In this document: one piece after another, positions 16,060 through 52,758 of the stretch
Numbering within the stretch: the first letter of the stretch is position 1
Layout: every line of letters begins with the position of its first letter
NCBI GenBank assembly: GCA_023443725.1
Contig: JAEZTF010000010.1
Coordinates: 29,948-93,947 of the forward strand
Length of the DNA stretch: 64,000 nucleotides
Source of the DNA: Candidatus Parcubacteria bacterium
Lineage (GTDB): Bacteria; Patescibacteriota; Microgenomatia; UBA12405
Direction: 5' to 3'
Notes under the pieces: generated by a model
Told to the model about the DNA's origin: nothing
Seen by the model: only the letters and a program-made list of their open reading frames with translations
The model's database searches: none
Made by a program: the position numbers and the translations under genes

Positions 16060-18867
16060 TTAGTTTATTTTTTCAATTTTGAGGGAATCGGATTGTTTAA
16101 TGCTTTGGCCTAATGTTTTGGAAAGGATTTCTTTTTCAAATTGGCTAGGCCAATTTGGGGCAAAAATTATGATTTTGTCTTTTAAATCCAAGTTGGCTTC
16201 TTTTCGAAGACTTTGAATTGAACGAATTAAATCTCTAGATTCTCCTTCTGCTTTTAGTTCTGGTGTGATGTTTGTGTCTAACAAAACAGATAAATTGTCG
16301 GATGATTTAACAATTTCTATAGTTTTTACATTAATTTCATTTTTTATAATTTCTATTAATTTTTCAGATAAATCTAATTTTTGATTAGTAGAAATAGTTA
16401 GTTTAGACAAAGGTTGACGAGTGCTAATATTTTGAGTTTTTCGAATCATATTCCCCTGCTCACAAATTTGTTGAACTAAAATCATATCATTAGCTAATTT
16501 TTCATTGAATTGGTCAACATTTGGATAATTTTCCAAATGAATGGATTCTGATTTGGTAGAATCAATATTAACAACTAAATTTTGCCAAAGAGTTTCAGTA
16601 ATAAAAGGAATGATTGGAGCGACGGCTAGACTAAATTTAACCAAAACTTGCCAAAGAGTTTGTAAAGCTTGTTGGTCACCTGTGGCAAATCGATCGCGTG
16701 ATTGACGGATATACCAACGAGAAAGATCGTTAATAAAAGGTTCAATTAATCTAGTAGCATTGGGAAGATTATATTCTGTTAAATTTTTTTCTAGATTAGA
16801 AATAAAATTATTAGTTTGATTTTCGATCCATTGGTCAAGAACATTATCAGAATTTTGTGTTTCTAAGTTTGGAGAAAAATCAAAAAGATTAGCGTAAGTG
16901 ATGAAATACTTATACGAATTCCAAAGTGGTAATAATATATTTTTGACTTGATTGTCGAATTCTTTTTCATCTAGATTAATATTTTCTCCAACCATAATGA
17001 CACTACTCATAAGATAAAGTCGCATAGCGTCGCCACCATATTTTTGAAGAACCATTTTTGGATCTGGATAATTTTTGAAAAGTTTACTCATTTTTCGACC
17101 ATCATTCCCCATCATGGTACCGGTGACAACACAATTCTTGAAACTTTCTGATTGAAATAATGTGTTGGATAAAACATGAAGAGTGTAAAACCAACCACGG
17201 GTTTGACCAATATATTCGACTATATAATCGGCAGGAAAGCTTTTTTCAAAAAATTCTTTATTCTCAAATGGATAATGCACTTGAGCATAAGGCATAGCCC
17301 CTGATTCAAACCAACAATCTAAAACTTCAGGAACGCGGTGGGCTTTTTTCCCACATTTATCACAAGTGACGGTAACTTCATCAATATCTGGTTTATGAAG
17401 ATTAGTGATTTTTTGTCCCGATCTTTTCTCCAATTCAGCAATACTAGATGGAACGAACCTTTCACCACATTCACATTCCCAAATTGGAATTGGTGAAGCC
17501 CAAAAACGAGATCGAGATAAACACCAATCTGGTGCTGTTTCTATCCCCTGTCCAAAACGACCATCTTTTATATGATCTGGTACCCAATTAATATTTTGGT
17601 TGGTAGATTTCATTTTATCTTTGACTGATTGAACATTGAGATACCAAGCACTTTGAGATTTATAGATTAATGGAGTACCACAACGATAACAAAATGGGTA
17701 ACTGTGAGTAATCAAATCTTGTTTAAAGAGTAAATTGCGACTTTTTAAATCCTCAATAACTAGTGGATCAGCTTTTTTAACAAAAAGATTAGCAAATGGT
17801 TTGACTTGATCAATAATTTTACCTTCATCATCAACATGGTTAATTAAAGATAATTTATTTTCTTTTCCAAAATTAGAATCATCTTCACCAAAGGCAGGAG
17901 CAATATGAACAACGCCGGTACCATCAGTCATAGAAACAAAATCAGCATGATAGATTTTATAATCGTTTTGTCCAACTTCAAAAAAGTTATAAAGTGGTTT
18001 GTAAGAAAGTCCAATCAATTCTTGACCTTTAAAATCTCTAATAAGCTCATATGGTTGATTATCAACCACTACTTCAATTCTGGCTTTTGCTAAAATTAAA
18101 TTTTGCTCATTTAATTTGATTTCAGAATAAATTTCATCTTTATTAACAGCAAGAGCAAGGTTGGCGGGAAGAGTCCAAGGAGTAGTTGTCCAGGCTAAAA
18201 CATAAGCATCACGATCTTTTAATTTAAACTTAATGGAAATAGCTGGATCTTCAACATCTTTATAGGAATTATCCATAGCAATTTCAAAATTTGAAAGTGG
18301 GGTGGAACATCGAGGACAATATAAAGAAATTCGGTTACCTTTATAGATTAATCCCTTTTTATAAATTTCTGAAAATACCCACATGACAGATTCCATGTAT
18401 GGTAAATCCATGGTTTTATAGGCATTTTTTAGATCTACCCAACGACCAACATGATCAATATACCAAGGCCATTCTTGAGAAACATTTTGAACATAATCAT
18501 AACAAGCATCAATATATTTTTTGATACCAATTGATTCAATATCTTTTTTATTTTTTAAACCAAGTTGTTCTTCAACTTTATTTTCTGCTGGAAGTCCATG
18601 ACAATCCCAACCCCAAACACGACGAACCCTTTTACCTTTCATAGTCCAAAATCTTGGAACGACGTCTTTGGCAATACTAGAAAGCAAATGTCCATGATGA
18701 GGCATGCCGGTAATGAATGGAGGACCATCATAAAAACTATATGCATTTTCTTCTGAACGAGATTCGACTGATTTTTCAAAAATCTTTTTATCTTGCCAAA
18801 ATTTAATTATTTCTTCTTCAAGAGAAGGAAAAGTTATGTTTTGAGGAACTGATTTAAATTTTGGCAT
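16060..18867 (-). CDS. ileS: Isoleucyl-tRNA synthetase, type 2 (eukaryote/archaea-like).
   Basis: Class I signatures PHHGHLL (HIGH), GWDCHGLPAE and KMSKL (KMSKS). CPRC zinc knuckle. 935 aa. Confidence 0.85.
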   Translation of the reverse strand: MPKFKSVPQNITFPSLEEEIIKFWQDKKIFEKSVESRSEENAYSFYDGPPFITGMPHHGHLLSSIAKDVVPRFWTMKGKRVRRVWGWDCHGLPAENKVEEQLGLKNKKDIESIGIKKYIDACYDYVQNVSQEWPWYIDHVGRWVDLKNAYKTMDLPYMESVMWVFSEIYKKGLIYKGNRISLYCPRCSTPLSNFEIAMDNSYKDVEDPAISIKFKLKDRDAYVLAWTTTPWTLPANLALAVNKDEIYSEIKLNEQNLILAKARIEVVVDNQPYELIRDFKGQELIGLSYKPLYNFFEVGQNDYKIYHADFVSMTDGTGVVHIAPAFGEDDSNFGKENKLSLINHVDDEGKIIDQVKPFANLFVKKADPLVIEDLKSRNLLFKQDLITHSYPFCYRCGTPLIYKSQSAWYLNVQSVKDKMKSTNQNINWVPDHIKDGRFGQGIETAPDWCLSRSRFWASPIPIWECECGERFVPSSIAELEKRSGQKITNLHKPDIDEVTVTCDKCGKKAHRVPEVLDCWFESGAMPYAQVHYPFENKEFFEKSFPADYIVEYIGQTRGWFYTLHVLSNTLFQSESFKNCVVTGTMMGNDGRKMSKLFKNYPDPKMVLQKYGGDAMRLYLMSSVIMVGENINLDEKEFDNQVKNILLPLWNSYKYFITYANLFDFSPNLETQNSDNVLDQWIENQTNNFISNLEKNLTEYNLPNATRLIEPFINDLSRWYIRQSRDRFATGDQQALQTLWQVLVKFSLAVAPIIPFITETLWQNLVVNIDSTKSESIHLENYPNVDQFNEKLANDMILVQQICEQGNMIRKTQNISTRQPLSKLTISTNQKLDLSEKLIEIIKNEINVKTIEIVKSSDNLSVLLDTNITPELKAEGESRDLIRSIQSLRKEANLDLKDKIIIFAPNWPSQFEKEILSKTLGQSIKQSDSLKIEKIN

Positions 18868-19414: not shown

Positions 19415-20584
19415 TCAGCCGTTTTTTCTTAAAAAAGCAGGGATATCAAATTCGTCAACTATATCAACGCCAGTAGGTATATCTTTATCACCTAAAAATT
19501 TTTTAATTTGATGATCACTTAATTCTTTTACTTCTAAAGAATTAGCAGTGGGTGTTTGTTGAATAATTGGATCTCTATCTATTTGAGGTATTGGTTTTTT
19601 TATAGAACTGTAAAATTGACTTTTAGTATTATCAAATCCAGTAGCAATAACAGAAATTTTTATTTTTCCTTTTAATTCTTTATCGATAGTAGTACCAAAA
19701 ATAATATTGGCATCTGGAGCACTTCTTTCAGTTATGGTTCTAGCAGCTTCTTCTATTTCGGCCATAGTAAGATCTGGTCCTCCAGTAATATTAATCAAGA
19801 CACCTCTAGCACCTTGAATTTCGACTTCAACCAAAGGTGAGTTAATGGCTTCTTCGACTGCTTTTTTAGCTCGAGAATCACCTTCTGCTTCTCCTACTCC
19901 CATAAGTGCAGTACCAGCATTACTCATAACAGATTTGATATCGGCAAAGTCTAAATTTATTAATCCTGGATTAGTAATAAGATCAGCAATAGCTTTCGTA
20001 CCTTTATTTAGTACTGAATCGGCAATTTTGAAAGCTTCTAAAAGAGTGGCCTTATCGTTAACTACTTCCATAACTTTTTGGTTTGGAATGACAATTAAGG
20101 TATCGACATTATTGCGTAATTGAGAAATTCCCTCTTCAGCATTAGTCATACGACGAGTTCCTTCAAAAGCAAATGGTTTGGTGACTACTCCAATAGTTAG
20201 AATACCTAATTCTTTTTTGGCTATTTGAGCAATTATAGGAGCTGCTCCGGTGCATGTTCCTCCACCCATTCCACCAGTAATAAAAACCATATCTGTACCA
20301 GCTAAAACTTCTTTGATTCTTTCCTTAGATTCTTCGGCTGCCTTTTGACCCATTTGAGGATTACCTCCAGCACCTAAACCTTTGGTTAGTTTTTCTCCTA
20401 TTTGAATTTTTATTGGGGCAAGAGAATTTAATAAAGCTTGTGAATCGGTGTTTACGGCAATAAAATCAACTCCAATAATACTATCTTCGGAAATCATCGA
20501 ATTAATAGCATTATTACCGCCGCCACCGACACCGATGACTTTAATTTTGGCAAATTGTCCAGTTAATGTTTTTACTAATCCCAT
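19415..20584 (-). CDS. ftsZ: Cell division GTPase FtsZ.
   Basis: GVGGGGNNAINSM, tubulin signature GGGTCTGAAPIIAQ. Confidence 0.95.
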   Translation of the reverse strand: MGLVKTLTGQFAKIKVIGVGGGGNNAINSMISEDSIIGVDFIAVNTDSQALLNSLAPIKIQIGEKLTKGLGAGGNPQMGQKAAEESKERIKEVLAGTDMVFITGGMGGGTCTGAAPIIAQIAKKELGILTIGVVTKPFAFEGTRRMTNAEEGISQLRNNVDTLIVIPNQKVMEVVNDKATLLEAFKIADSVLNKGTKAIADLITNPGLINLDFADIKSVMSNAGTALMGVGEAEGDSRAKKAVEEAINSPLVEVEIQGARGVLINITGGPDLTMAEIEEAARTITERSAPDANIIFGTTIDKELKGKIKISVIATGFDNTKSQFYSSIKKPIPQIDRDPIIQQTPTANSLEVKELSDHQIKKFLGDKDIPTGVDIVDEFDIPAFLRKNG

Positions 20585-20586
20585 AG

Positions 20587-21843
20587 TTACGGTAAGATAG
20601 GCTCAATTAATTTTTTGACTCGACCAATAATACCTCCAAAATTTAGTTTTATTTTTCTGTTCGAAGAAGAACTAGAAGTATTGTCTTTGTTTTCTCTAGC
20701 CGTCATAAGTAAACCAATAGTACTAGTGTATGCAGGATTGAGAATATCATCGACGATACCTCCCATTTTTGGGGGAAAAGCAATTCTAAAAGGTAAAGGA
20801 ATTATTTTTTCACAAATTTCTTTTGCATTGACGGTTTGGGCACCACCACCAGTAAGAACAATTCCGGCTGGAATTACATGATGCAAATTGGCTGACTCTA
20901 ATTGATTAAAAATTAGATTAAATATTTCTTCAAGTCTTGGTTTGATAATTCCATTAGTGGCAGTTTGAATTGATATTTTTCTGTTTTTATCAAGAGAATC
21001 TATATCTAGTTTGGAAATTTCAATCTCATCATCAAAGTTTTTATTTTCAACTAACTTGTTTAATTTAAGTTTTATTTTTTCAGCATCATCAAGAGAAAAT
21101 CTTAGTCCTATAGCCAAATCATTAGTAACATTATTAGCACCGATAGGAATCACTGAAGAAAATATAGGAGCACCTTCATTAAAAACAGTGATAGTAGTAA
21201 CACTACCACCGATATCTACAAGTGCGACTCCTAATTCTTTTTCGGTTTCACTTAGACTGGCTTTTGCAGCAGCTAAACCAGAAAAAGTAAGATTGTTTAT
21301 ATGGATACCAATATCTTCAAGACATTTTCTAAGATTTTTAAGTGACGGCGTTGAAGCTAGAACAATGTGAGTTTCTACTTCAAGCCTAGTACCATTCATA
21401 CCAATAGGATCGACTACTCCTTCTTGACCATCAACAGTATATTTAATTGGTATTATGTGAATTATTTCTTTTCCAGGTGGTATAGCGATGGCCTTAGCGG
21501 CTTCAACTACTCGATTAATATCATTTTGGTCAATTTCACCGTTGGGGTTGCTAATAGCTACTACACCATGTGAGTTAACAGATTCGATATATGGTGCTGA
21601 TAAAGAGATAGAAGCAGAATTGATTTGAAAACCAGCCATTCTTTCAGCAGATTCTATACTTTGAGTAATAGTGTTGGATGCTTGGTCAATATTAATAATT
21701 TGACCTTTTCTAAAACCTGTGGCAGGGATTGAAGATACAGCAATAATATTAAATTTATCCTCTACTTCCTGATATTGACCGATTATAGTGGTTACTTTTG
21801 AAGTTCCGATATCAATGCCACTAATTGTTTTTGAGTGTTGCAT
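20587..21843 (-). CDS. ftsA: Cell division protein FtsA.
   Basis: Actin-like ATPase: ISGIDIGTSKVTTII, DIGGSVTTITV, 418 aa, directly upstream of ftsZ. Confidence 0.9.
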   Translation of the reverse strand: MQHSKTISGIDIGTSKVTTIIGQYQEVEDKFNIIAVSSIPATGFRKGQIINIDQASNTITQSIESAERMAGFQINSASISLSAPYIESVNSHGVVAISNPNGEIDQNDINRVVEAAKAIAIPPGKEIIHIIPIKYTVDGQEGVVDPIGMNGTRLEVETHIVLASTPSLKNLRKCLEDIGIHINNLTFSGLAAAKASLSETEKELGVALVDIGGSVTTITVFNEGAPIFSSVIPIGANNVTNDLAIGLRFSLDDAEKIKLKLNKLVENKNFDDEIEISKLDIDSLDKNRKISIQTATNGIIKPRLEEIFNLIFNQLESANLHHVIPAGIVLTGGGAQTVNAKEICEKIIPLPFRIAFPPKMGGIVDDILNPAYTSTIGLLMTARENKDNTSSSSSNRKIKLNFGGIIGRVKKLIEPILP

Positions 21844-22198
21844 AAGGATGATCGATGCTAAGATCGACTAAATTAAATTGTCTATTATTCATTTTAGCTG
21901 TTTTAGAAAGATCTTGCAAAGATACAATTTGCCAATATGGATCTTTTTGAGTAGAAATAATAACTTTAACTAAATTATTATTGTTATCTTGTAAATAAAA
22001 TTCAACTTCATTTAAATAATCTCTAATAGTTAAATTAATAGGATCTAATTGACTGGTTTTAAAAGCATTGTTTAATTTATCGTAAAAATCGTTTTGGTTT
22101 GATTTTGGAGTAATAGTTGAGGGATAAGTTTTAATTATAGTAAAAGCAATTATTCCAATAGTTAAAGTCAAACTAAAAATGATTTTAAATAATTTCAT
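21821..22198 (-). CDS. Short FtsQ/DivIB-like membrane-anchored protein (POTRA-less?).
   Basis: Single N-terminal TM and its position between murG and ftsA. No strong motif. Confidence 0.35.
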   Translation of the reverse strand: MKLFKIIFSLTLTIGIIAFTIIKTYPSTITPKSNQNDFYDKLNNAFKTSQLDPINLTIRDYLNEVEFYLQDNNNNLVKVIISTQKDPYWQIVSLQDLSKTAKMNNRQFNLVDLSIDHPYATLKNN

Positions 22199-23276
22199 AA
22201 ATTAACTTTAATAGTTTCAGATTAATTTGATTTTTTATATTTTTATTCTGAAACTTTATTAGTTTTAGTGAATTGATGGATGATAAAAGATTCTTACTGT
22301 TTAATTGGGATTGATCAATAATAATAGTTTGTTGTGGTAATTGTTGTTTAACCCAATTAGCATTTATTAACTGTTCATTTTGTTGACTTTTGGGCAAAGG
22401 AATCAGAATGGATCTTTGATTAAAAGCAACAATTTCTTGGCTAGTATTAGCACCACTTCGACTAATAATTATTGAGGCTTTTTTGAAAATCCACCCCATA
22501 TATTCTGTTTTTATATAATCAAAAGGATAATAATTTTTATATTTTGAAGACAATTTTTTAAATTTCTCGAAGTCTAATGGTCCAGTTTGATGAATAATTA
22601 AAAAATCTTTTAAGTTTGGTAAGATTTTTTTAATAGTTAAGTTAATAACATGCGATCCTTGATTACCAGCGGTAATATAAATAATTGGTTTTTGGTTAGA
22701 TTTAATTGAAGGAATTTTAATTTCTTGAGTAAATAATTCATAGCGGAGTAAATTTCCAGTAACAGCGGTTTTTGTTTTAGGTAAACTTTTTAATTGTTTT
22801 TGATTGTCGAAAGACAAGGCAATTTTAGTTACAAACAAACTGTTTATTTTTGTGGTTAAGCTATTAGTAGCGGTTTGTTCATGAGTAATAGTAGGAATGT
22901 GTTTTAAACAACCATTAATGATTACAGGAACAGAAACATAACCACCAAAAGAAACAATTACATCAGGTTTAATTTTGACTATAATTCTTTTTGATTCAAA
23001 AAAACCAATTATAGTTTTTTTTATACCTCTAAGAGTATTGGGAAAGTACTTACGATCAAATTTACCACATTCAATACCAAAATAACTTATCCCCAATTCA
23101 GGAATAATCTTTGATTCAATTGACTTTTCTTGGCCTTCCGAAGAATTTAATTTACGGCCAATATAATAAATGGTCCAATTAAATTTGGAGTCATTTTTAA
23201 GTTGACGAATCAGTTCTAGAGCTGGTGTGAGATGAGTGCCGGTGATGATGATTATCTTTGTTATCTTTTGACTCAT
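22185..23276 (-). CDS. murG: MurG-like GT28 transferase (UDP-GlcNAc:lipid I GlcNAc transferase).
   Basis: N-terminal IIITGTHLTPALELIRQL resembles the MurG G-loop. A C-terminal ITAGNQGSHVIN motif is present. Sits in the dcw position. Confidence 0.7.
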   Translation of the reverse strand: MSQKITKIIIITGTHLTPALELIRQLKNDSKFNWTIYYIGRKLNSSEGQEKSIESKIIPELGISYFGIECGKFDRKYFPNTLRGIKKTIIGFFESKRIIVKIKPDVIVSFGGYVSVPVIINGCLKHIPTITHEQTATNSLTTKINSLFVTKIALSFDNQKQLKSLPKTKTAVTGNLLRYELFTQEIKIPSIKSNQKPIIYITAGNQGSHVINLTIKKILPNLKDFLIIHQTGPLDFEKFKKLSSKYKNYYPFDYIKTEYMGWIFKKASIIISRSGANTSQEIVAFNQRSILIPLPKSQQNEQLINANWVKQQLPQQTIIIDQSQLNSKNLLSSINSLKLIKFQNKNIKNQINLKLLKLIYEII

Positions 23277-24366
23277 GATTTGAGTATAGCAGGGTTGTGT
23301 TATTTTTTTCGATATTATGAACCAACCCGATGGCGGCGGCTAAAGTAGTTAAAGATGATCCACCATAAGAAATAAATGGTAAAGGAACTCCGGTTAAAGG
23401 GATAATACCAGCAATTGCTGAAACATTAATTAATGTTTGATAAGTAATCCATAAAGCAGTGCCTGAAACTATAAGAGATTGAAAATTGTCAGGAATAATA
23501 TTGGCTAATTTAAACAAATAAGAAATTAAAGAAATATAAACAATTATTATAGAAAATAATCCGATGAATCCGGTTTCTTCACCAATAACCGCCAGAATGG
23601 AATCAGTAGATATTTTTGGAAGAAAACTATATTTTTGATCTGAATTAGCAAAACCTTTACCAAAAAAACCACCAGAAGCTAGAGTTAAAGTAATTTGATT
23701 ACTATGATATGAAGCCGTGTTTTGATTTTGTTCAGGATTTAGCATAGTTTTTAATCTAGCAGACCTATAAGGAGAAGTTAAAACCAATATCAAACTAATC
23801 GAAACTAAAAAAACACAAAATGTAAGAAGTGAGCTAATTTTGCCACCCCCAAGGTAATAAAGTGAAATAGAAATAGCCGATATTAAAATAGCTGTACTTA
23901 AATTTGGTTCTATAATTATTAGTACAAAAGGAATACCTAAATAAACAACCAAGTTTTTTAATTGACAATTTTCACTTTTTGAAAAAAATTTTGAAAGAAA
24001 TAACACTAAACTCAGTTTTAAAATTTCTGATGGTTGAAATTTAACGATGCCCAAATTCAACCAACGATGAGCTCCAAGAGTTTCATCACTAAATCCTGGA
24101 ATAATAACTAATATCAAAGCAATAATTGAAAAAATAAAAAATAAAGGAATATATTTTTGAATAGTTTTAAGTTTTATCTTAGAAAAAATAAAATAAACTA
24201 CAAAACTAATTATTAACCAAAGACTTTGTTTTCTAAGAAAGAAAAACTTATCTCCAATACTAGTAGTAGCTTCACTAAGTGAAGCAATGGAAATAAAAAT
24301 AATTCCAATAGCAATTAGAATAGAAATTAGGGAAATTAAAGGTGATTTAAATGCTGACGGTTTCAT
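23197..24366 (-). CDS. ftsW: FtsW (SEDS) lipid II flippase/PG polymerase.
   Basis: ASGGFFGKGFANS, GEETGFIGL and PLPFISYGGSS. The start is inferred at MKPSAFK (24366), because the ORF-track N-terminal extension overlaps the upstream gene. There is a His-rich C-terminal tail. Confidence 0.75.
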   Translation of the reverse strand: MKPSAFKSPLISLISILIAIGIIFISIASLSEATTSIGDKFFFLRKQSLWLIISFVVYFIFSKIKLKTIQKYIPLFFIFSIIALILVIIPGFSDETLGAHRWLNLGIVKFQPSEILKLSLVLFLSKFFSKSENCQLKNLVVYLGIPFVLIIIEPNLSTAILISAISISLYYLGGGKISSLLTFCVFLVSISLILVLTSPYRSARLKTMLNPEQNQNTASYHSNQITLTLASGGFFGKGFANSDQKYSFLPKISTDSILAVIGEETGFIGLFSIIIVYISLISYLFKLANIIPDNFQSLIVSGTALWITYQTLINVSAIAGIIPLTGVPLPFISYGGSSLTTLAAAIGLVHNIEKNNTTLLYSNHESKDNKDNHHHRHSSHTSSRTDSST

Positions 24367-25480
24367 TGGCAGATTTGATAATTGAGGGTTTGATATTGAT
24401 AGGATTGTTTTGATTAGAAAATGGAATAAAATCTCGATAACGACTACAGGTATTATTTGATTTATCTTTTTTGGTAATTTCAGAACCAATGATTTTAGAA
24501 TTGTAAAATCTTTTATTTTCTTGAGGGATATCTATTTTTGTTTCTATTGGTAAGAATGATAAAAGATGAAAGAAAAAAAGTGAATTAATATTATTTCTAA
24601 TTTCGATTTGATGGTAAAGATCAAAAGAAGCTGTTAATCTTGGATTACATTCTAAAATGAAAACTTCTTCTTGATCAGTTACAAAAAAATCTAGACCAAA
24701 GAAACCATGATAATCAAAATTTGATAATACATCGGCAAGTTGTTCAGTTAAAATTTTAATTTTTTCAACAATTTTTGTTGGAGCAAACGATGGCCATTGT
24801 CGACCAACAGTAGTGAAAGGGTTTTGAGTAAATTGAGAAAGTCCAGTATATTGTAGTCCCGGTGGACTTTGAATTAGACCAGCGTTGGTAAGACAACAAT
24901 TATTAATTAATGAATAACCAGATAAAAATGGTGTAAATTTTACTGGAGTTTGAAGTGGAATTTTATCTTTTATATCTTCCCAATTTGATGAACTAAAGGT
25001 GCTTTTACCAGCCCAACCGAATCTGGTTTGAAGAACTAAATGTTTATTTAATACTTGTTGATATTTTTCAAAGTTTTCTTGATTGAATTTATCAATAATT
25101 GATGGAATTGTAGGTAAATAATGTTTTTTACAAAGTTTAGAAAAATTTATTTTATCTTCTAAAAAGCGATTTATTTTGGCTGGATTAGCGGCGTAAATCC
25201 AATTTTTTTGATGACAGATATGTTCTATCTTTCCCGAAGGTTTGAATGGAATTATAACTGCTTGGTGGCCAGTTTGTTTAATTTTGTTTTTAATAAAATT
25301 AATAGTTATGACTTCTGATAATAATTTCCCCGAATTTTTAATTTTATTGTTTAAATTCAAAATATCTGAATTTAATAAATAAAAATTACTTATTTCTTTA
25401 ATATTGATAGTTAAAAACTTATCAACACTAATAAAGAAAAAATCAAAATTACTATTTTGAAGTGTGTTAATTAGATTCAT
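24347..25480 (-). CDS. ATP-grasp ligase, D-Ala-D-Ala ligase (Ddl)-like, divergent.
   Basis: C-terminal GLDFFVTDQEEVFILECNPRLTASF matches the Ddl-type (R/G)xDFF...E(V/I)N(T)xP pattern. 377 aa with an atypical N-terminus. Confidence 0.5.
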   Translation of the reverse strand: MNLINTLQNSNFDFFFISVDKFLTINIKEISNFYLLNSDILNLNNKIKNSGKLLSEVITINFIKNKIKQTGHQAVIIPFKPSGKIEHICHQKNWIYAANPAKINRFLEDKINFSKLCKKHYLPTIPSIIDKFNQENFEKYQQVLNKHLVLQTRFGWAGKSTFSSSNWEDIKDKIPLQTPVKFTPFLSGYSLINNCCLTNAGLIQSPPGLQYTGLSQFTQNPFTTVGRQWPSFAPTKIVEKIKILTEQLADVLSNFDYHGFFGLDFFVTDQEEVFILECNPRLTASFDLYHQIEIRNNINSLFFFHLLSFLPIETKIDIPQENKRFYNSKIIGSEITKKDKSNNTCSRYRDFIPFSNQNNPINIKPSIIKSANETVSI

Positions 25481-26298
25481 CTTTTGGCACCGGTTAAAAG
25501 AATAACTGGAAAGTTTCCAACATCGATTCCATTTTTAATCGCTTTTTGATAACCGGCTAAAGCTAATGATCCTTCTAAAGAAGTAAAAATATTTTTAGAT
25601 TCGAGTAGTTGATTGGCTAATAAAATAGCTTCATTTTGAACAGTAAAAGCCGAACCATTACAATTCTTAATATTTGAAATAATTTTGTCTTTTAGGGGTA
25701 TAAATTTTACAGATAAAGCATCAGTAATTAGTCTGTTTTCAGGTATAAAGTTGTTATCAAAGCGTTTGGAAATAGGACAGTTACTGGCCGATTGAACAGC
25801 AAAAATCTTAGTTGAAGGTGGAAGTTTTTGGGCAATTCCGAGAAGGGTAGTACCACTACCAACAGGAATAAAAATACTGCTAATTTGTGGTAAATCTTGA
25901 ATAACTTCTAAGGCAATTTGTTGATATCCGATTAAAGCTGAAGGATCGGTTGATTGACGAAGTAGATAAACTTGTTTACTTTTTGCATATTTAATAGCAT
26001 CGCTAATAGGTTGGTCACTTAAAATAATTTCAGCAGAGTATTGCTTTAAAAGATCTAATTTCTTTTGATTTACTTTTGAAGATAAAAATATAGTTAATTC
26101 AATCTGATTGATTTGGCAAAAATGAGCCGCTGAAATTGCTGCATTACCAGTACTAGAGATAACAGCTTTAGTGAAACCAAGATGTTTTAAGTTTTCTATT
26201 TGAAACGGTATGGCTCTATCTTTAGCTGAACCGGTTGGGTTTTGGTCTTCCCTTTTTAAATAAAAATTGTCTATTTTAACTAAAGGAGTATTTGTCAT
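25477..26298 (-). CDS. Short (273 aa) fold-type-II PLP-dependent enzyme (Trp-synthase-beta superfamily, threonine-synthase/cysteine-synthase/racemase-like).
   Basis: PLP-lysine motif YLKREDQNPTGSAKDRA, Gly-rich loop VGSGTTLLG. Confidence 0.6.
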   Translation of the reverse strand: MTNTPLVKIDNFYLKREDQNPTGSAKDRAIPFQIENLKHLGFTKAVISSTGNAAISAAHFCQINQIELTIFLSSKVNQKKLDLLKQYSAEIILSDQPISDAIKYAKSKQVYLLRQSTDPSALIGYQQIALEVIQDLPQISSIFIPVGSGTTLLGIAQKLPPSTKIFAVQSASNCPISKRFDNNFIPENRLITDALSVKFIPLKDKIISNIKNCNGSAFTVQNEAILLANQLLESKNIFTSLEGSLALAGYQKAIKNGIDVGNFPVILLTGAKR

Positions 26299-26341: not shown

Positions 26342-26506
26342 ATGACAGAAACAAAGAAAGTTAAATGTCCTGATTGTGGAGCTGAAATTTTATTATCTGG
26401 AACTGAAGAAGTCGGTGATATTTTGGAATGTGGCGAGTGTGGTACTGAAGTAGAAATTACTTCTATTGATCCTCTTTCTTTTAGAGAATTAGTCGAAGAG
26501 AAATAA
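26342..26506 (+). CDS. LysW-like zinc-ribbon protein (amino-group carrier protein family-like) of 54 aa.
   Basis: KCPDCGAEILLSG...GDILECGECGTEVEITSIDPLSFRE matches the LysW ribbon pattern CPxCGAE...CxxCGxE(L/V)E(V/I)...DPL. The C-terminus is ...LVEEK rather than the canonical ...EDWGE. Confidence 0.5.
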   Translation: MTETKKVKCPDCGAEILLSGTEEVGDILECGECGTEVEITSIDPLSFRELVEEK

Positions 26507-27061
26507 TCTGTAAATACCTTGATTCTCAAAATTCAGATCAGTTAAATCGGCTTGTCCATAATGAACTCCCCTATTATCTCTTGAACTATCGACATATAAA
26601 ATAATATTGTCTTTTTTCTCGATGATAAACAAAACATGATGACCATTCTTTTGACGAACTAGGTCGCCAGTTTGAATATCAGTAATATTTGTAATTTTTT
26701 TTGATAAAGGAGTGGAAGTTAACATGTCAGCAGAAGTTTTTCGAGGATTAAGATCTACTTTTTTATTGATCAAAGAACCATAGAATATTAGCAACTGACA
26801 AACTAATCCGGAGCAATCGATACCGATTTTATTTTTCTTTTGAAAATTGTAAATTTCTCTTTCTGAAAGATTTAATAATTTTAAATTTTCTTGGTTAGCC
26901 AATTCAACAGTTTTAAGAGCGATATCTTTAGCGTTTCCCTTACCTCCCATAAATCCCTCTTTGATTATTTTGCCGTCTTTTAAAGTATTCTTCCAATATG
27001 GAATACCGATGTATTTACTGATTTCTAATTTTAATTGATTGATTAATTCAGGCCCAACCAT
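26489..27061 (-). CDS. NlpC/P60-family papain-like peptidase/amidase.
   Basis: Catalytic Cys motif GIDCSGLV, downstream GDLV...GHHVLFI (His). The start is inferred at MVGPEL. Confidence 0.55.
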   Translation of the reverse strand: MVGPELINQLKLEISKYIGIPYWKNTLKDGKIIKEGFMGGKGNAKDIALKTVELANQENLKLLNLSEREIYNFQKKNKIGIDCSGLVCQLLIFYGSLINKKVDLNPRKTSADMLTSTPLSKKITNITDIQTGDLVRQKNGHHVLFIIEKKDNIILYVDSSRDNRGVHYGQADLTDLNFENQGIYRLFLFD

Positions 27062-28077
27062 AATCCAAAAATAGCTAAAATAATACCAGCTAACCAAGCA
27101 CGAGTAACAATTTTAGGTTCTTCCCAACCAATTTTTTGCAAAGTAAGATGAATAGGAGCAGCTGGAAAAACTTTTTTACCAAAATATTTTTTACTAAAAA
27201 TCTGAATAGCACTACTCATACCTTCAATGATGAATGGAGAACCAATAATTAATAATGGAACTATTTTTCCTAAAAGAATAGCAATTACGGCAAATGTAGC
27301 GCCAAATGATAAAGCTCCGACGTCACCCAACCAAATTCTGGCTGGATAAACATTAAAATATAAAAAGGCGATTAATGATCCTAACCATAGTGACAAAAAT
27401 AAAGAAGTTGGAGTATCTAATGAGGTATTTGATAAAAACCAAAAAGCAAACAAAGCTATCATTAATAAACCACAAGACAGACCATCTAAACCATCAGTAA
27501 TATTAAAAAAGTTGGTAAAAGCAGTGATGATGATGGTGGATATGGGGATAAAAAATAAACCTAAGTGAATTGGTCCAAAAAAAGGTATGTAGAAAAAATC
27601 TATTTTTAATTTTAGATAAATAAGAAAAGAAATAATAACTGATAAAAGTAATTGAAGAATAAGTTTATGAATTAATCTAAGTCCAAAAAAACCAGTTTTT
27701 TTGAAACCAAAAAACTTATAAATATCATCATAAAGTCCAAGAATACCAAAACTAATAAAAGTAAAAAAGATTATTTCTAACTCATAATTTATTTGAAAAT
27801 TAGAAGAAATAAATATTTTGGAAAATTTTAATATAGGAAATAGAATTAAAAACATAACACAAACAGCAATGATGATTAAGAGTCCTCCACCTACAGGTGT
27901 GCCACTTTTTGAGTTATGAAATTTATCAAAAATAGGTGTTTTGTTATTTTGAAAATCGGTTGTTTGTTGTTTTTGACGTTGAAATTTGAGTTTGTAAAGA
28001 AGATTGATAAATGGAACAACTAAAGTACTAGAAATAAAGAAGGAAAAAAGTAATAGACCTAAATAAAGATGAATCAT
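27043..28077 (-). CDS. mraY: Phospho-N-acetylmuramoyl-pentapeptide transferase.
   Basis: NFFNITDGLDGL, about 10 TM helices. Confidence 0.9.
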   Translation of the reverse strand: MIHLYLGLLLFSFFISSTLVVPFINLLYKLKFQRQKQQTTDFQNNKTPIFDKFHNSKSGTPVGGGLLIIIAVCVMFLILFPILKFSKIFISSNFQINYELEIIFFTFISFGILGLYDDIYKFFGFKKTGFFGLRLIHKLILQLLLSVIISFLIYLKLKIDFFYIPFFGPIHLGLFFIPISTIIITAFTNFFNITDGLDGLSCGLLMIALFAFWFLSNTSLDTPTSLFLSLWLGSLIAFLYFNVYPARIWLGDVGALSFGATFAVIAILLGKIVPLLIIGSPFIIEGMSSAIQIFSKKYFGKKVFPAAPIHLTLQKIGWEEPKIVTRAWLAGIILAIFGLWLGLN

Positions 28078-28079: not shown

Positions 28080-29408
28080 TTAAATTTTAATATATTCAAT
28101 ATTAGCACCTAAGGAAGAAAGTCGTTCAGCTAATTTTTCGTAGCCTCGTTCTATAAATTCGACACCATCTATAGTAGATATTCCATCAGCAACTAAAGCA
28201 GCTATAGTAGTTGAGGCTCCGGCTCGAAGATCATCAATAACAAAATTAGTTGGTTGTAATTTGGTTGGTCCATATATTTTTACTCCGTGAAAAAAGTTAG
28301 GGTTGTCATTTTCTGGATTAAATTGATAGTAAGTTTCTGGATTTTCAACTATAGGATTAAATAATTGGACTTTTGCTCCCATTTTTTGTAAGTTAGCAAT
28401 ATGTTGAAAACGACTTGGATAGACTTTTTCGATTACCGAACTACAACCTACTGATTGAGTCAAAAGAATTGAAAATAAAGCTTGCCAGTCAGTCATAAAA
28501 GCTGGTTCTGGTCCAGTTTCGATATTGATAGCTTTTAATGGTTTTTCCCAAGAAATATATATTTCTTCCTCCCCTGTTTGGACTTTAGCTCCCATATTTT
28601 CGATGGTATCTAAAAATGTTTTAACCGTTTTTGGATCAGCCCTAAGAATATTGACACTACCTTTGGTGGCTAGAGCAGCGCAAGCAAAAGTAACAATTTC
28701 ATTTCGATCACAAATTACTTGATGTTGAGTACCGGTTAGAGATGAAACTCCTTGGATAACAATTTTTCCAGGGTCAGATGGTTCTCTTTGAATTTTTCCA
28801 CCCATTTTATTTAAAAGAATTATTAGATCGTCTATTTCTGGTTCTTGGCCACAATTTTCTAAAATAGTTTCTCCTGGAACTAATACAGCTGTCATAATTA
28901 AAGTTTCAGTGACGGTATGAGAAGGTTTATTAAAAACATAATGAACTGGTTTAATTTTTTCAGTAGTAAAAACTAAGTTAGTTTCTGTTTCCTTGGTTTG
29001 AATATTCATTTTTGAAAAACAGTCAATTAGACGATCTAGAGGCCTATTGCCAAGACGATCTCCTCCTGGAGTAGGAACTACAGCTTGCCCAGTTCTGGCT
29101 AATAGTGGAGCAGAAAACATAAATGAACTACGAGATTTAATTCCAGTTCCTTGTGGGACAGTAAAATTTTTTATTTTTGAGGTAGTTACTTTGATGCAAT
29201 GTTCACCACAAGAACTTATTTCTGATCCTAAAGATTTTGCAATGCTTTCGGTTATTTTTATATCAGAAATATTGGGAATATTGGTTAATTGGGTAGTTTG
29301 ATCAGAAAGCATAGAAGCAATAATTTGTTTATAGCTAGCATTCTTTGCTCCTCTAATAGAAACTTCACCTTGAAGTTTTTTCCCGCCAGAGATGATATAT
29401 CGTGACAT
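28080..29408 (-). CDS. murA: UDP-N-acetylglucosamine 1-carboxyvinyltransferase.
   Basis: LQGEVSIRGAKNAS near the N-terminus, 442 aa, EPT fold. Confidence 0.85.
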   Translation of the reverse strand: MSRYIISGGKKLQGEVSIRGAKNASYKQIIASMLSDQTTQLTNIPNISDIKITESIAKSLGSEISSCGEHCIKVTTSKIKNFTVPQGTGIKSRSSFMFSAPLLARTGQAVVPTPGGDRLGNRPLDRLIDCFSKMNIQTKETETNLVFTTEKIKPVHYVFNKPSHTVTETLIMTAVLVPGETILENCGQEPEIDDLIILLNKMGGKIQREPSDPGKIVIQGVSSLTGTQHQVICDRNEIVTFACAALATKGSVNILRADPKTVKTFLDTIENMGAKVQTGEEEIYISWEKPLKAINIETGPEPAFMTDWQALFSILLTQSVGCSSVIEKVYPSRFQHIANLQKMGAKVQLFNPIVENPETYYQFNPENDNPNFFHGVKIYGPTKLQPTNFVIDDLRAGASTTIAALVADGISTIDGVEFIERGYEKLAERLSSLGANIEYIKI

Positions 29409-29413: not shown

Positions 29414-30787
29414 TTAGTGAATATTTTTAATAATTGATTTAATAATTTTATTACCAGACAAACCACCAGAACTCATATATATAAGGATATCATTTGATGA
29501 TAAATGATGTATATAGTAGGCTTTTATTTCTTTTTCGATAGGAATATAAATCAACTTTGATCCAATTTCTTGTTTAAAGTCTTTAGCAGTAGCACGAGAT
29601 TTTTTGTCTACATTAGGGTTAAATCTAATTGGTCCTAAAACTATTTCATTAGCTTTTGTAAAAGCTTTTTTTAAGCCAATTAAATTACTTTTATATTGGG
29701 TAAATGAGGCATGAGGTTGAAAGAATACTTTTATTAATTTATCTGGAAAATGAGTTGTTAAAGCTTCAATGGTTGATTTAATACGATTTGGTGATTGAGC
29801 GAAATCTTCAAAAAACAAAATATTTTTTTGTTTATCAATTAATTCTAATCGCCTTTTAACTCCTCTATAAGAAAAAACAGCTTTTTGAATAAAACGAAAA
29901 CTAATACCTAATTGATCAGACATACTAACTGCAGCCAGAATATTCTCAAAGTTAAATTGACCGATAAGAGTAGTTTGAATAGATAACGGACCTTTGGGGG
30001 TATGGATTAATAAGTTGGTTATATCAGATTTAATATTTATTTTTTCTATAAAATAATCAGATTCTGGAGAATTATAGGAAACAATTTTAGCTTTTGAATA
30101 AAGACTAAGTTTTTTGGTTTGACAGCCAAGAGAATTGATTAAAAGGGTGCCATTTTCTGGTAGTCGATTAATTAATTTCTTAAAAGCTTGAAAATTTTTT
30201 ATTTTACTAGAATAAGAATCTTTATGTTCCCAATCGGCACTAGTTAAAATTAAATGTTTAATTGGATAATATAAAAACTTAGCTTTTCGATCTAATCCAT
30301 TAATTGATTCATCGGCTTCAACGATAGACCAATTAGATGGAGAGAAGTTAATAGAGTTCATCTTATTTTTGGCGTATCCACCAAACATGTAATTTGGATC
30401 TTTTTTAGCTTGAATGAAAATCCAAGACAATAGACTAGTGATAGTAGTTTTTCCAAAACTACCAGCAATTAAGACAGACTCATCTTTAATTAAGTTTTGA
30501 GCTAAATAATTAGTAGCAGAAATATAGGGAATTTTTAGTTTTTTTATTTGATTAAATTCTTTTTTGGTTTTTTCAAAAGAAAGATATGATGATCCAATAA
30601 TAGCCAAATCAATATTAGTATTGATTTCTATCGAATTGATCGATATATCCGCTTTTTTTAACATAGTACTAATTGGGGGATAAATTTTTTCTTGATCTGA
30701 TCCGGTTATATAAACTCCTCTTTTTTTGAGATTAACTGCCAGAGGAGCAGTCATGGTTCCAGCTATTCCGACTATGTGAATATGCAT
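29414..30787 (-). CDS. murC: Mur ligase, MurC/Mpl-like.
   Basis: N-terminal Rossmann IHIVGIAGTMTAPLAVNLKKRGVYITGSD (MurC-type), P-loop AGSFGKTTITS. Confidence 0.6.
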   Translation of the reverse strand: MHIHIVGIAGTMTAPLAVNLKKRGVYITGSDQEKIYPPISTMLKKADISINSIEINTNIDLAIIGSSYLSFEKTKKEFNQIKKLKIPYISATNYLAQNLIKDESVLIAGSFGKTTITSLLSWIFIQAKKDPNYMFGGYAKNKMNSINFSPSNWSIVEADESINGLDRKAKFLYYPIKHLILTSADWEHKDSYSSKIKNFQAFKKLINRLPENGTLLINSLGCQTKKLSLYSKAKIVSYNSPESDYFIEKINIKSDITNLLIHTPKGPLSIQTTLIGQFNFENILAAVSMSDQLGISFRFIQKAVFSYRGVKRRLELIDKQKNILFFEDFAQSPNRIKSTIEALTTHFPDKLIKVFFQPHASFTQYKSNLIGLKKAFTKANEIVLGPIRFNPNVDKKSRATAKDFKQEIGSKLIYIPIEKEIKAYYIHHLSSNDILIYMSSGGLSGNKIIKSIIKNIH

Positions 30788-30822: not shown

Positions 30823-31419
30823 TTATTTTTCATATGGAAGCCATTGATTGTCTTTAAAATATTCAAATCCAGGCATATTACGTTTATAGAATCCAGTTTC
30901 AATAGAAAAACGACCTAAATAACAAAATTGAAGATTTTGTTGTTGACTGTCAACAATGGTTTGTAACACCAATCTAATAGGTAAATTACTATGATTATAT
31001 TTAGGATTATAAAAAACATAAGCAATATGACTAATAGAGTTAGAAAAATAACATATTGAATAAGCAATTATCTGATGATTTTCATTATACCAACTATAAA
31101 TAGTATTAAAAATATGATTAGTAAATGTTTTTTTGACTGAACTTATGGGAAAATCCCAACCTAATTGTTTTATCCAAGAAAAAATTTCTTTTTGAATATT
31201 AAGATCAAATTTAAAATCGTTCAAATTAGTTTTAATAAAAGAAAAATTATCAGTTTTTCTTAAAATCCTTCTATTTTCTGAACTGAGATTAAACTTGGAT
31301 AAATTTGATCGACAACTACTATCCTGATACCAAAGATCTTTTTGGTTTCTTTGAGGAAGGAATCCTTGTTGATAATTTAATTCTATAGATTGATTGTTGG
31401 TTAAATTAAATTGGGTCAT
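30823..31419 (-). CDS. ATE/Bpt-family (arginyl/leucyl-tRNA-protein transferase C-terminal domain-like) protein embedded in the mur operon.
   Basis: IAYVFYNPKYNHSNLPIRLVLQTIVDSQQQNLQFCYLGRFSIETGFYKRNMPGFEYF resembles the ATE_C signature (AVYtFYDP...SLG...YvYLGYwI..c.KM.YK..F.P.E). It overlaps murE by 4 nt, which suggests translational coupling. Confidence 0.45.
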   Translation of the reverse strand: MTQFNLTNNQSIELNYQQGFLPQRNQKDLWYQDSSCRSNLSKFNLSSENRRILRKTDNFSFIKTNLNDFKFDLNIQKEIFSWIKQLGWDFPISSVKKTFTNHIFNTIYSWYNENHQIIAYSICYFSNSISHIAYVFYNPKYNHSNLPIRLVLQTIVDSQQQNLQFCYLGRFSIETGFYKRNMPGFEYFKDNQWLPYEK

Positions 31420-32735
31420 ATTTTTTTTAATTTTAAAGCAGTTCTAAAAGCTTCTGTTTCTGACCAAGGATATTCAGTATTTCCATGAAGAATAGTATCT
31501 TCATGACCTTTACCACAAGCAATCACAACATCATCGGGTTGGGCTAACTTAATAGCTATATTGAAAGCGTCCTGTCGATTGGGAATATTAAAATAAGTAA
31601 ATTTTTGGTCAATCTTTTTTAGAATATCATTTATTTGTTTTTGATTTTCAATTTTTTGAATGTCAACAAAATTGGATTTATTAGGATCAATACCATTGAT
31701 TATTTGTTGATTAATTTGACTAATATCTTCGTTTCTAGTGTCGTCTGAAGTAATAATGGCAATATCAGCTAGACTAGAGACTACTTGACCCATTTGAGGT
31801 CGTTTTGTTTGATCTCGTCCGCCTGTGGCTCCAAAAATAATAATAATTTTACCTTTAGTAATTTTCTTTAATGAAGAAAGAGTTTTTTCTAAAGCGTTTG
31901 GAGTATGGGCAAAATCAACAATTGTTTTAAATTTAAAATTATTTTTAACTTCTTCTCGACGACCTTTGGTTTCGGGAAAATTTTTAACTGTTTCGAGTAA
32001 GAATTGTCGATTAATTTTTAAGTTATCAATAATTCCTAAGGCAACCAATATATTATTAATCTGATAAAAATAATTACTATCAGTGGTTATGGTTAGTTTA
32101 TTTACTTTAAAACTTAATTTTTTATTAGTTAATTTAATATCTTTAGCTTGATAATCTGACTTTTGGTCAACACTGTAAGTTGAGTAAGGAATTTGAATCA
32201 TAGGTTTAATTATTTGATATGACGAATCGTCTTTATTGATAATGCCATAATCTGATTGAGAGAAAATTTTTGCTTTAGACTGAATATACTCTTCCATGTT
32301 TGAATAATAATCTAAATGCTCATGTGAAGTGTTGGTAATAGCTGCAGTTATAAAGTGGCAACCTAAAAATCGATATTGATCAAGGCCATGAGCAGTAACT
32401 TCACAAACTACATGAGTAACTCCTGCAGCTAACATTTGACTAAGTATTTGCTGAAATAATTTTGGATCTGGACTAGTCATATGTAAACCAGTACTTATTT
32501 CTTGATTATTTCCAAACTTAGCGCCTATTGTAGTAATTACACCGGCATTAATACCAGCTTTTTTTAAAATTTCATAAACTAAAATACAACTAGTTGTTTT
32601 ACCATCGGTTCCAGTAATACCAATAAGTTTTAGTTTTTTTGCTGGAAAATTATGTTGAAGACTGACAAAAAAGTTTTTTGGGTAATGCCAGAAAAGATTT
32701 TTTATTTTTTGAAAATTGATCGATTTTAATGACAT
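31416..32735 (-). CDS. murE: UDP-MurNAc-L-Ala-D-Glu:diamino-acid ligase.
   Basis: P-loop GITGTDGKTTS, DFAHTPNALE motif, position after ftsI. Confidence 0.7.
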   Translation of the reverse strand: MSLKSINFQKIKNLFWHYPKNFFVSLQHNFPAKKLKLIGITGTDGKTTSCILVYEILKKAGINAGVITTIGAKFGNNQEISTGLHMTSPDPKLFQQILSQMLAAGVTHVVCEVTAHGLDQYRFLGCHFITAAITNTSHEHLDYYSNMEEYIQSKAKIFSQSDYGIINKDDSSYQIIKPMIQIPYSTYSVDQKSDYQAKDIKLTNKKLSFKVNKLTITTDSNYFYQINNILVALGIIDNLKINRQFLLETVKNFPETKGRREEVKNNFKFKTIVDFAHTPNALEKTLSSLKKITKGKIIIIFGATGGRDQTKRPQMGQVVSSLADIAIITSDDTRNEDISQINQQIINGIDPNKSNFVDIQKIENQKQINDILKKIDQKFTYFNIPNRQDAFNIAIKLAQPDDVVIACGKGHEDTILHGNTEYPWSETEAFRTALKLKKI

Positions 32736-34369: not shown

Positions 34370-34617
34370 TTTAGATTTACTTTTTGATCAATGTATATGA
34401 GAGGCTTTTTTTGTTGTTCTAGATAAAGATAATTAATAGAAGTCATATCGGTGAATTTTTTTTCTAGGCCTTGAGTTTCTATTTTAAGTTTTTGATGTTC
34501 AATTTGATTTTGATAAAGCTGACTGTTTTGGTTGATAATTTCACTTGAATAATAAAAAGAAAAAACGATTTGAATAGAAATAATTACAACTAAAATGTAA
34601 GTAAAATATTTTGGCAT
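34366..34617 (-). CDS. FtsL-like small bitopic coiled-coil division protein.
   Basis: 83 aa with an N-terminal TM and a heptad-rich tail. It sits between rsmH and ftsI. Confidence 0.5.
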   Translation of the reverse strand: MPKYFTYILVVIISIQIVFSFYYSSEIINQNSQLYQNQIEHQKLKIETQGLEKKFTDMTSINYLYLEQQKKPLIYIDQKVNLK

Positions 34618-43240: not shown

Positions 43241-43268
43241 AGATAAGTTTAAACAAAATTATTACAAA

Positions 43269-43907: not shown

Positions 43908-43908
43908 T

Positions 43909-46073: not shown

Positions 46074-46076
46074 TTT

Positions 46077-48130: not shown

Positions 48131-48131
48131 A

Positions 48132-52755: not shown

Positions 52756-52758
52756 ACT

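Follow-up and report, generated by a model that had tools for sequence, protein, structure and literature searches.

We analyzed a 64,000-nucleotide stretch of DNA from a Candidatus Parcubacteria bacterium (contig JAEZTF010000010.1, positions 29,948 to 93,947; G+C content of about 30%), hereafter called the window. In its division and cell wall (dcw) cluster, genes for a fold-type-II pyridoxal 5'-phosphate (PLP) enzyme and an ATP-grasp ligase lie between mraY and ftsW, which is the usual slot of murD. We found that these two genes, together with those for a LysW-like zinc-ribbon protein and an NlpC/P60-like cysteine peptidase, constitute one conserved four-gene module that is tied to MurD. We tentatively propose that this module loads an amino acid onto a carrier, modifies it there and releases it, and that it works in peptidoglycan precursor synthesis at the MurD step, where D-glutamate is added at position 2. 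That the architecture is one of a carrier-based module for stem-peptide synthesis seems to us fairly probable, and we regard D-glutamate specifically as a possible but rather doubtful product. The module and the two genes that mark the murD slot are as follows.

27043-28077, minus strand: MraY, the upstream neighbour marking the murD slot
26489-27061, minus strand: NlpC/P60-like cysteine peptidase, 190 amino acids, counted from Met13 of a 202-residue open reading frame (ORF) at 26489-27097
26342-26506, plus strand: LysW-like zinc-ribbon protein, 54 amino acids, antisense to the operon
25477-26298, minus strand: fold-type-II PLP enzyme, 273 amino acids
24347-25480, minus strand: ATP-grasp ligase, 377 amino acids
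23197-24489, minus strand: FtsW, the downstream neighbour marking the murD slot; its start is probably downstream of the listed TTG

Conservation of the module and its link to MurD

An original prediction, made from the letters of the window, had singled out the pair at 24347-26298 as a PLP enzyme and a Ddl-like ligase lying where murD and ddl normally sit. The pair is indeed a PLP enzyme plus an amide-forming ligase inside the dcw cluster, and the slot is that of murD; it is not that of ddl, and the extent given missed the two module members at 26342-27061, i.e. the LysW-like and NlpC/P60-like genes. The ORFs of the pair overlap by 4 nt, and homologue searches with the two found 556 and 525 sequences, the named close ones being from Candidatus Shapirobacteria. 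Given these numbers, and given that the same gene order surrounds the pair in 80 species-level genome loci, neither can be a chance ORF.

We compared gene orders in 80 genome loci and 80 metagenome loci, plus single look-ups, all annotated with reference proteins from Escherichia coli K-12 and the Candidate Phyla Radiation (CPR). The order in the 80 Shapirobacteria loci is MraY-NlpC-LysW-like(antisense)-PALP-ATP-grasp-FtsW. In what we call type 1 loci, which belong to other Patescibacteria (L082, L085, L089-091, L103, L104, L107, L108, L111, L113, L170 and L171), the order is [MraY]-NlpC-MurD-LysW-like(antisense)-PALP-ATP-grasp-[FtsW-MurG-MurC-MurB], and the ligase next to the peptidase gene is MurD according to TIGR01087, with 159-258 bits and five scores above the cut-off. 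Type 2 loci start with FtsI-MurE-ATE-like-MurC-(MurB)-MurA-(Ddl)-MurF-MraY and continue with NlpC-LysW-like-PALP-ATP-grasp-FtsW-MurG-FtsA-FtsZ. MurD is missing from this arrangement. We saw the arrangement in 19 metagenome loci and in every Shapirobacteria locus of sufficient length; the Shapirobacteria clusters of this type also have no MurB, Ddl or MurF within the cluster. Clusters such as L145 and L159 contain MurA, MurB, MurC, MurE, MurF, Ddl, MraY and MurG, so that MurD alone is absent and the module occupies its slot.

The members of the module are also physically joined to one another and to MurD. We identified PALP::ATP-grasp fusions (P0295, P0392), ATP-grasp::NlpC/P60 fusions (P0307, P0311, P0384, P0385) and NlpC-like::MurD fusions (P0459, P0464, P0491), the last with a domain orthologous to the peptidase of the window. 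Wherever the PLP/ATP-grasp pair occurs, it is accompanied by the LysW-like protein with its near-invariant tail. It is because of the MurD fusions and the LysW-like and NlpC/P60-like genes that we have changed the interpretation of the pair.

In some type 1 loci, MraY and the NlpC/P60 gene are separated by a gene for a 525-residue Amidohydro_3 protein (L170, 6308-7885; L171, 7678-9255). The Amidohydro_3 family includes N-acyl-D-amino-acid deacylases, and this protein may also belong to the module. A third context (type 3) contains the ATP-grasp gene alone; here a 7TM_transglut gene and a second ATP-grasp gene (ATPgrasp_ST) with a Zn_protease gene are followed by the member of our ATP-grasp family, near a class A penicillin-binding protein. 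The type 3 ATP-grasp protein of L115 (7981-11503; also in L151 and L143) has about 500 residues and is encoded beside TyrRS and the class A penicillin-binding protein. This context, in which there is no PLP or LysW-like gene, probably represents a separate peptide-forming system.

The PLP enzyme and the ATP-grasp ligase

The 273-residue ORF at 25477-26298 on the minus strand carries the motif NPTGSAKDR, and its assignment to the fold-type-II PLP enzymes was borne out by the PF00291 profile (E=4e-45). The protein has the PALP fold, the Schiff-base lysine, the Ser/Thr-Gly-Asn loop and the Gly-rich phosphate loop. The PLP lysine is K26, within NPTGSAKDR, so that the protein starts only 25 residues ahead of it, and the asparagine loop reads S48-S-T/S50-G-N-A. 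The enzyme is very short, as had been remarked, and nearly all listed homologues, at 62-86% identity, are exactly 273 residues long; it is a minimal enzyme rather than a fragment.

Its sequence indicates a derivation from the ThrC branch, with a match to the ThrC structure 6cgq at E=6e-16. We nevertheless rejected an ordinary threonine synthase, because every equivalog model falls far short of its cut-off (the best ThrC models reach only 94-104 bits against 266-421), the ThrC N-terminal domain is absent, and two ThrC motifs are replaced in the alignment, namely STGNT by STGNA and NPYRLEGQK by DPSALIGYQ. We take the replaced motifs to be the substrate phosphate-binding (O-phosphohomoserine) residues. 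Nor is the protein a truncated cysteine synthase, an option that had been raised against the original prediction, since its best matches are of the ThrC type and its length is conserved. Structurally, it is as close to the PLP-dependent Asp/Ser racemases as to ThrC, and the fold does not separate a racemase from a beta-replacement enzyme or a dehydratase.

The 377-residue ORF at 24347-25480 on the minus strand contains FFGLDFFVTDQEEVFILECNPRLTAS and scores 29.1 bits against PF02655 (cut-off 23.2); against the NCBIfam model PRK06524 'biotin carboxylase' it reaches 98 bits, with a cut-off of 684. A search of the Protein Data Bank (PDB) by sequence and profile gave only marginal matches to CPSase and PurK around ECNPR. 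An AlphaFold2 model built on 49 homologues, with a predicted local distance difference test score of 94.8, superposes over about 300-320 residues on PurK and biotin carboxylase, and shows the three-domain ATP-grasp fold with conserved ATP and Mg ligands and the catalytic arginine. The residues predicted to bind ATP and Mg or to act in catalysis (K80, E108, K110, Q151, D264, E277, N279 and R281) are invariant down to 25% identity, and the enzyme is probably active.

The claim that this ligase is Ddl-like did not hold. The PF07478 profile gave no match; the supposed Ddl-type C-terminal motif, ECNPR, is general across ATP-grasp enzymes, the best weak sequence matches being to CPSase and PurK; and the 'unusual long N-terminus' is the ordinary N-terminal (pre-ATP-grasp) domain. 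Ddl is also structurally farther from our model than about 20 other ATP-grasp chains. For these reasons, and because a true Ddl coexists with the module, membership of the Ddl family was rejected. The ligase is a member of an orphan family, whose structural neighbours include the amide-forming ligases PylC and BesA and also L-amino-acid (dipeptide) ligases. PylC joins an amino-acid carboxylate to the epsilon-amine of lysine, and BesA is a gamma-glutamyl ligase. We also considered a link to the CPS-like ATP-grasp enzymes of pseudomurein synthesis and dropped it, as the pMur models score poorly; the paper on pseudomurein pangenomics mentions no fold-type-II PLP, NlpC or LysW partner.

The LysW-like protein and the NlpC/P60-like peptidase

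The LysW-like gene has 54 codons (protein sequence MTETKKVKCPDCGAEILLSGTEEVGDILECGECGTEVEITSIDPLSFRELVEEK) and lies on the opposite strand between the gene for the PLP enzyme and the 202-residue ORF, 43 bp from the start of the former (divergent) and with an 18-nt overlap with the 3' end of the NlpC-like gene (convergent). Its product matches PF21344 with E=6e-13 and 48.6 bits (cut-off 27), and TIGR01206 (lysW) with 45 bits, which is under the cut-off of 53. The LysW chains 3wwl (E=3.5e-8) and 5k2m_E (E=6.9e-8) in the PDB match over nearly its full length. The gene was found in 111 loci, in the same place and the same antisense orientation. The four cysteines are invariant in 104 unique sequences, and the conserved positions are C9, C12, G25, C30, C33, E52 and K54. 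When compared with 29 orthologues, the gene shows 490, 421 and 780 substitutions at codon positions 1, 2 and 3, respectively, i.e. a third-position bias. The gene keeps this antisense placement inside an otherwise co-directional operon.

We propose this protein as the carrier, with its tail as the putative site of covalent loading. In canonical LysW, the tail is EDWGE and the substrate is carried on the terminal glutamate (gamma-carboxylate). The tail of the LysW-like protein, which is 5 residues shorter than that of the aligned Thermus thermophilus LysW chain, is not of this type; its C-terminus is EEK in 108 of the 111 loci and is nearly invariant even across deep lineages.

The peptidase most likely starts at the conserved Met13 (27061) of the 202-residue ORF, has no signal peptide and is cytoplasmic. 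It contains a catalytic-type motif, GIDC95SG, together with H154. C95 and H154 are at least 95% conserved, and M13, D94, C95, S96, G97 and H154 are conserved in 71 orthologues. The GIDCSG motif is common to the peptidase of the window and the true PF00877 domains of the ATP-grasp fusions, and the gene at the equivalent position in L170 matches PF00877. Cleavage of gamma-D-glutamyl amide bonds is the hallmark of the NlpC/P60 family.

MurD and the remaining precursor genes

The other genes of the dcw cluster in the window, where every gene except the LysW-like one is on the minus strand, are as follows.

34617-35501, minus strand: MraW
32750-34369, minus strand: FtsI
31416-32735, minus strand: MurE without the N-terminal domain
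30823-31419, minus strand: ATE_C-like protein with an aminoacyl-tRNA-transferase fold
29414-30787, minus strand: divergent MurC-like ligase
28080-29408, minus strand: MurA
22185-23276, minus strand: MurG
21821-22198, minus strand: FtsQ-like
20587-21843, minus strand: FtsA
19415-20584, minus strand: FtsZ

A scan of the ORFs of at least 110 residues in the window, together with an extension of 10 kb beyond each of its ends, revealed no MurD, MurF, MurB, Ddl or glutamate racemase, and there was no third or fourth Mur ligase in the window, in these 20 kb of flanks or in the 80 Shapirobacteria loci. A homologue search with the nearest MurD, that of L108, returned MurDs of the Gottesmanbacteria and CPR3 type, the next-nearest again being from type 1 loci; none of the 120 matches listed was labelled Shapirobacteria. 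Absence from the cluster does not mean that MurD has been lost, because the essential MurB also lies outside some clusters (e.g. L086 and those of Shapirobacteria). In the lineages nearest to those without MurD, the MurD scores fall to 159-187 bits, under the cut-off (L103, L107 and L108).

Other enzymes of the pathway are also unusual. The profile match of MurE begins near position 97 of 486, so that the N-terminal (UDP-binding) domain is absent, and MurF of L086 and L087 likewise lacks its N-terminal part. MurE of the window reads DDTR where E. coli reads DNPR. The MurC-like ligase of the window scores 231 against a MurC equivalog cut-off of 335, and type 2 MurC proteins reach 126-167 bits against E. 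coli MurC, compared with 233-254 bits for type 1. Wedged between the MurE and MurC-like genes is the gene for the ATE_C-like protein of 198 residues (PF04377, E=7e-7; arginyl/leucyl-tRNA-protein-transferase fold), which is kept in Shapirobacteria and in other MurD-less clusters (L086, L087, L125, L131, L135, L145, L153, L159 and L160) and was not seen in the MurD-containing loci examined. This protein may be a Fem-like tRNA-dependent stem-peptide transferase; PDB sequence searches with it and with the NlpC-like protein gave nothing meaningful. MraY is 59-65% identical among type 2 clusters, whereas the same comparisons give only 33-43% identity for FtsW and MurG. Against E. coli, MraY identity is 28% for the window, 27-33% for type 2 and 36% for L113 of type 1. 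The conservation of type 2 MraY may reflect a lineage-specific constraint from its substrate. The falling MurD scores, the divergent MurC, the N-terminally short MurE and MurF, and the ATE_C-like gene hint at a rewired pathway in type 2 organisms.

Proposed mechanism

From the gene content, protein families, conservation, synteny and fusions described above, we infer the following cycle for the putative carrier. In the loading step, the ATP-grasp ligase would spend ATP on linking an amino acid through an amide bond to the flexible EEK tail of the LysW-like protein. Since the alpha-amine must stay available to the PLP enzyme and the near-invariant terminal residue is lysine, a bond from the side-chain carboxylate of an acidic amino acid to N-zeta of Lys54 would be the simplest tether, and the structural neighbours PylC and BesA make amides of a comparable kind; most likely, the side-chain carboxylate of L-glutamate would be joined to this epsilon-amine, with the alpha-amine left free. 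The minimal, open-site PLP enzyme would then act on the tethered residue, most likely by L-to-D epimerization, and the link to MurD favours the conversion of L-glutamate to D-glutamate. In the release step, the NlpC/P60-like peptidase would free D-glutamate for MurD, or would act after MurD has coupled it to UDP-N-acetylmuramoyl-L-alanine (UDP-MurNAc-L-Ala). That the ATP-grasp ligase is fused to an amidase in some proteins implies that one activity forms a bond which the other later cleaves, as expected for loading and unloading. Overall, the cycle would deliver the position-2 residue in one direction only, driven by ATP.

Several observations weigh against this proposal. The analogy with LysW is only partial, because the tail ends in lysine and not in the glutamate of EDWGE. 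The PF00877 match of the window's peptidase is weak (E=0.0024; 18.3 bits, under the cut-off of 23), and the module of L086 has no NlpC-like gene nearby. In 41 of the 87 metagenome loci of the ATP-grasp family, there are no PALP or LysW-like genes and the context is different. Serine or threonine at position 50 of the PLP enzyme is common to the whole fold, so it is no marker of a racemase, and we know of no fold-type-II PLP enzyme that racemizes glutamate or uses a protein-tethered substrate. A plain racemase would suffice for D-glutamate, which leaves the need for a carrier unexplained.

Alternative explanations

We weighed five other explanations against the carrier proposal. One that we consider unlikely is that the module is a non-orthologous replacement of MurD, in which the ATP-grasp enzyme of MurD-less clusters would ligate the position-2 residue onto UDP-MurNAc-L-Ala, the PLP enzyme would be the racemase that produces this residue, and the LysW-like and NlpC-like proteins would be accessory. 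The module is exactly in the mraY-X-ftsW position of murD, the clusters of L145 and L159 are complete but for MurD, MurD becomes progressively divergent in the nearest lineages that contain it and was not found in the window and its 20 kb of flanking sequence, and ATP-grasp enzymes and Mur ligases share an acyl-phosphate chemistry. However, an orthologous ATP-grasp gene lies beside a true MurD gene in at least 13 loci of other lineages, so that the ancestral job of the ATP-grasp enzyme is not that of MurD. In addition, absence from a cluster is no proof of absence from a genome, MurB being missing from several clusters as well, and a replacement of MurD leaves the near-invariant tail of the carrier and the ligase-amidase fusions unexplained.

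We also doubt that some other component of the stem peptide is built on the carrier, e.g. a lanthionine-like diamino-dicarboxylic acid for MurE, made by beta-replacement, or a D-Asp or D-Ser branch residue, comparable to what aspartate racemase and D-aspartate ligase do in enterococci. The ATE_C-like transferase gene of this cluster is a hint that the stem peptide may be unusual, and MurE keeps its arginine in DDTR, as in the DNPR of E. coli. However, the fusions and adjacencies involve MurD and not MurE or MurF, and MurE is not near the module and MurD in L082, L085, L089-091, L170 and L171. Known systems make lanthionine or D-Asp with enzymes that act on free substrates.

It is improbable that the module has no dedicated cell-wall role and is a general salvage or biosynthesis pathway for amino acids, built on a LysW-type carrier and merely carried along within the dcw operon. 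Lysine and arginine are the products of canonical LysW systems, and the ATP-grasp family also has members outside dcw clusters (L081 and L115). The sparse metabolism of Patescibacteria (PMC6744442) was also counted for this explanation. However, the mraY/murD-ftsW position is kept even where the ATP-grasp protein is only 27-37% identical to that of the window, the peptidase is physically fused to MurD, and no LysZ-, LysY-, LysJ- or LysK-type gene is nearby.

A more radical scheme, to which we give very little credence, is that MurD has been lost in Shapirobacteria and related Microgenomates and that the LysW-like carrier, in place of UDP-MurNAc, is the scaffold on which residues 1 and 2 of the stem peptide are put together. 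The ATP-grasp ligase would tether the gamma-carboxylate of L-glutamate to the terminal lysine of the carrier, the PLP enzyme would epimerize the residue to D-glutamate, and the ATE_C-like transferase would add L-alanine from Ala-tRNA. Relatives of this transferase attach amino acids to the alpha-amine of an N-terminal Glu or Asp. The divergent MurC-like ligase would then couple UDP-MurNAc to the tethered dipeptide in a Mpl-like manner. The restriction of the ATE-like gene to MurD-less clusters, the divergent MurC, and MurE and MurF without N-terminal domains are consistent with this scheme; if it is true, the peptidoglycan precursor would be made on a protein template and in part with the help of tRNA.

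Least of all do we expect the pair to be a dipeptide ligase and racemase that make a D-aminoacyl dipeptide, as the original prediction had suggested, and that stand in for Ddl and alanine racemase (Alr). In favour of this idea, neither Ddl nor MurF is encoded in the Shapirobacteria cluster or in the window, the PLP enzyme could be a racemase, and the ATP-grasp protein is structurally near L-amino-acid (dipeptide) ligases. The idea is, however, largely contradicted by type 2 clusters of sister lineages (L096, L098, L131, L135, L145 and L159), which hold MurF and a homologue of Ddl (best match E. coli DdlB) besides the orthologous module. Moreover, the ligase is not of the Ddl type by profile or structure, and the idea leaves the LysW-like protein and the NlpC/P60 and MurD fusions unexplained. 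The other option offered in the original prediction, an amino-acid-modifying plus ligating step in stem-peptide synthesis, is plausible.

Other features of the locus

Almost every Shapirobacteria locus, like several relatives, has IleS (16060-18867, minus strand) and a second gene of the FtsW/RodA family (15052-16050, minus strand) after FtsZ, as a conserved extension of the dcw cluster. Directly upstream of MraW, about where mraZ usually sits, is a conserved ORF of 236 residues (35501-36211, minus strand), for which Pfam gave no match. A small FtsL-like gene may hide in the 250-bp gap between MraW and FtsI (34370-34616). A long block for polysaccharide synthesis and glycosylation extends over 39133-57748 on the minus strand and runs on past the end of the window; it contains PMT_2-like, DUF4012, Bac_transf (initiating transferase), nucleotidyl transferase, Wzy_C and hexapeptide acyltransferase genes, as well as about 10 GT2/GT4 glycosyltransferase genes. 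L001, L002, L006 and many genome loci with a Shapirobacteria-type cluster belong to metagenome-assembled genomes titled 'uncultured Gammaproteobacteria bacterium', which appears to be a mislabelling.

Relation to known systems and implications

We found no description of the four-gene module in the literature on peptidoglycan of CPR, Shapirobacteria or Microgenomates, or on MurD, ATP-grasp and LysW. A close counterpart in logic is the LysW/amino-group carrier protein (AmCP) system of Thermus, Sulfolobus and Thermococcus (LysX/ArgX, LysZ, LysY, LysJ and LysK), which has the same acidic zinc ribbon of about 54 residues with a flexible tail, neighbouring genes for an ATP-grasp ligase and a hydrolase, and the tether-modify-release logic that we propose here. 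However, the tail in our module ends in EEK and the TIGR01206 score is under the cut-off; modification would depend on a fold-type-II PLP enzyme alone; release would fall to an NlpC/P60-like enzyme and not to an M20 peptidase; and the module is at home in the dcw cluster, beside murD or in its place. No RimK-type ligase (LysX/ArgX), LysZ, LysY, LysJ or LysK partner was found at the locus. The module would work like LysW/AmCP, yet it departs from that system in the defining tail, the ligase type and the partner enzymes.

Parts of the proposed cycle have parallels elsewhere. In the glutathionylspermidine/trypanothione synthetase-amidases, an ATP-grasp domain and a papain-fold amidase domain of the CHAP/NlpC-P60 superfamily act on the same bond type within one polypeptide. 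This matches our ATP-grasp::NlpC/P60 fusions, although the domain order is opposite, the substrates differ, and there is no carrier protein, PLP enzyme or cell-wall context. Ddl with alanine racemase, and the enterococcal D-aspartate ligase with aspartate racemase, are racemase/ATP-grasp pairs that feed a D-amino acid into peptidoglycan. Our module differs from them in that its ATP-grasp ligase is not of the Ddl family and is linked to MurD, and in that a carrier and a peptidase are integral to it. YkfC is a cytoplasmic NlpC/P60 gamma-D-glutamyl-L-diamino-acid endopeptidase. The peptidase of the module resembles it in being cytoplasmic without a signal peptide, in the GIDCSG...H arrangement and in its association with the D-glutamate position, but it is very divergent, falls under the Pfam cut-off and is proposed to unload a carrier.

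Bacterial cell-wall synthesis is treated as relying almost universally on D-glutamate at position 2 and on the MurC-F ligases, both of which are antibiotic targets. The module is widespread in the CPR and lies in the place of MurD across a class-level lineage. If our proposal is true, then it would be, to our knowledge, the first known use of a LysW-type carrier in cell-wall synthesis and the first known LysW-type carrier with a lysine tail. A conceptual parallel for the proposed D-glutamate role may be seen in MurD2/MurL of Xanthomonas, an ATP-dependent, unidirectional route from L- to D-glutamate that likewise has a MurD-type gene alongside and whose hosts are proposed to be without the usual enzymes for D-glutamate (PMC8788868). 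Its proteins are unrelated to the four of our module. On our proposal, the module would represent a further independent route to D-glutamate besides glutamate racemases, D-amino-acid aminotransferases and MurD2/MurL (PMC8788868), and would bear on how ultra-small, metabolically poor bacteria are supplied with D-amino acids.

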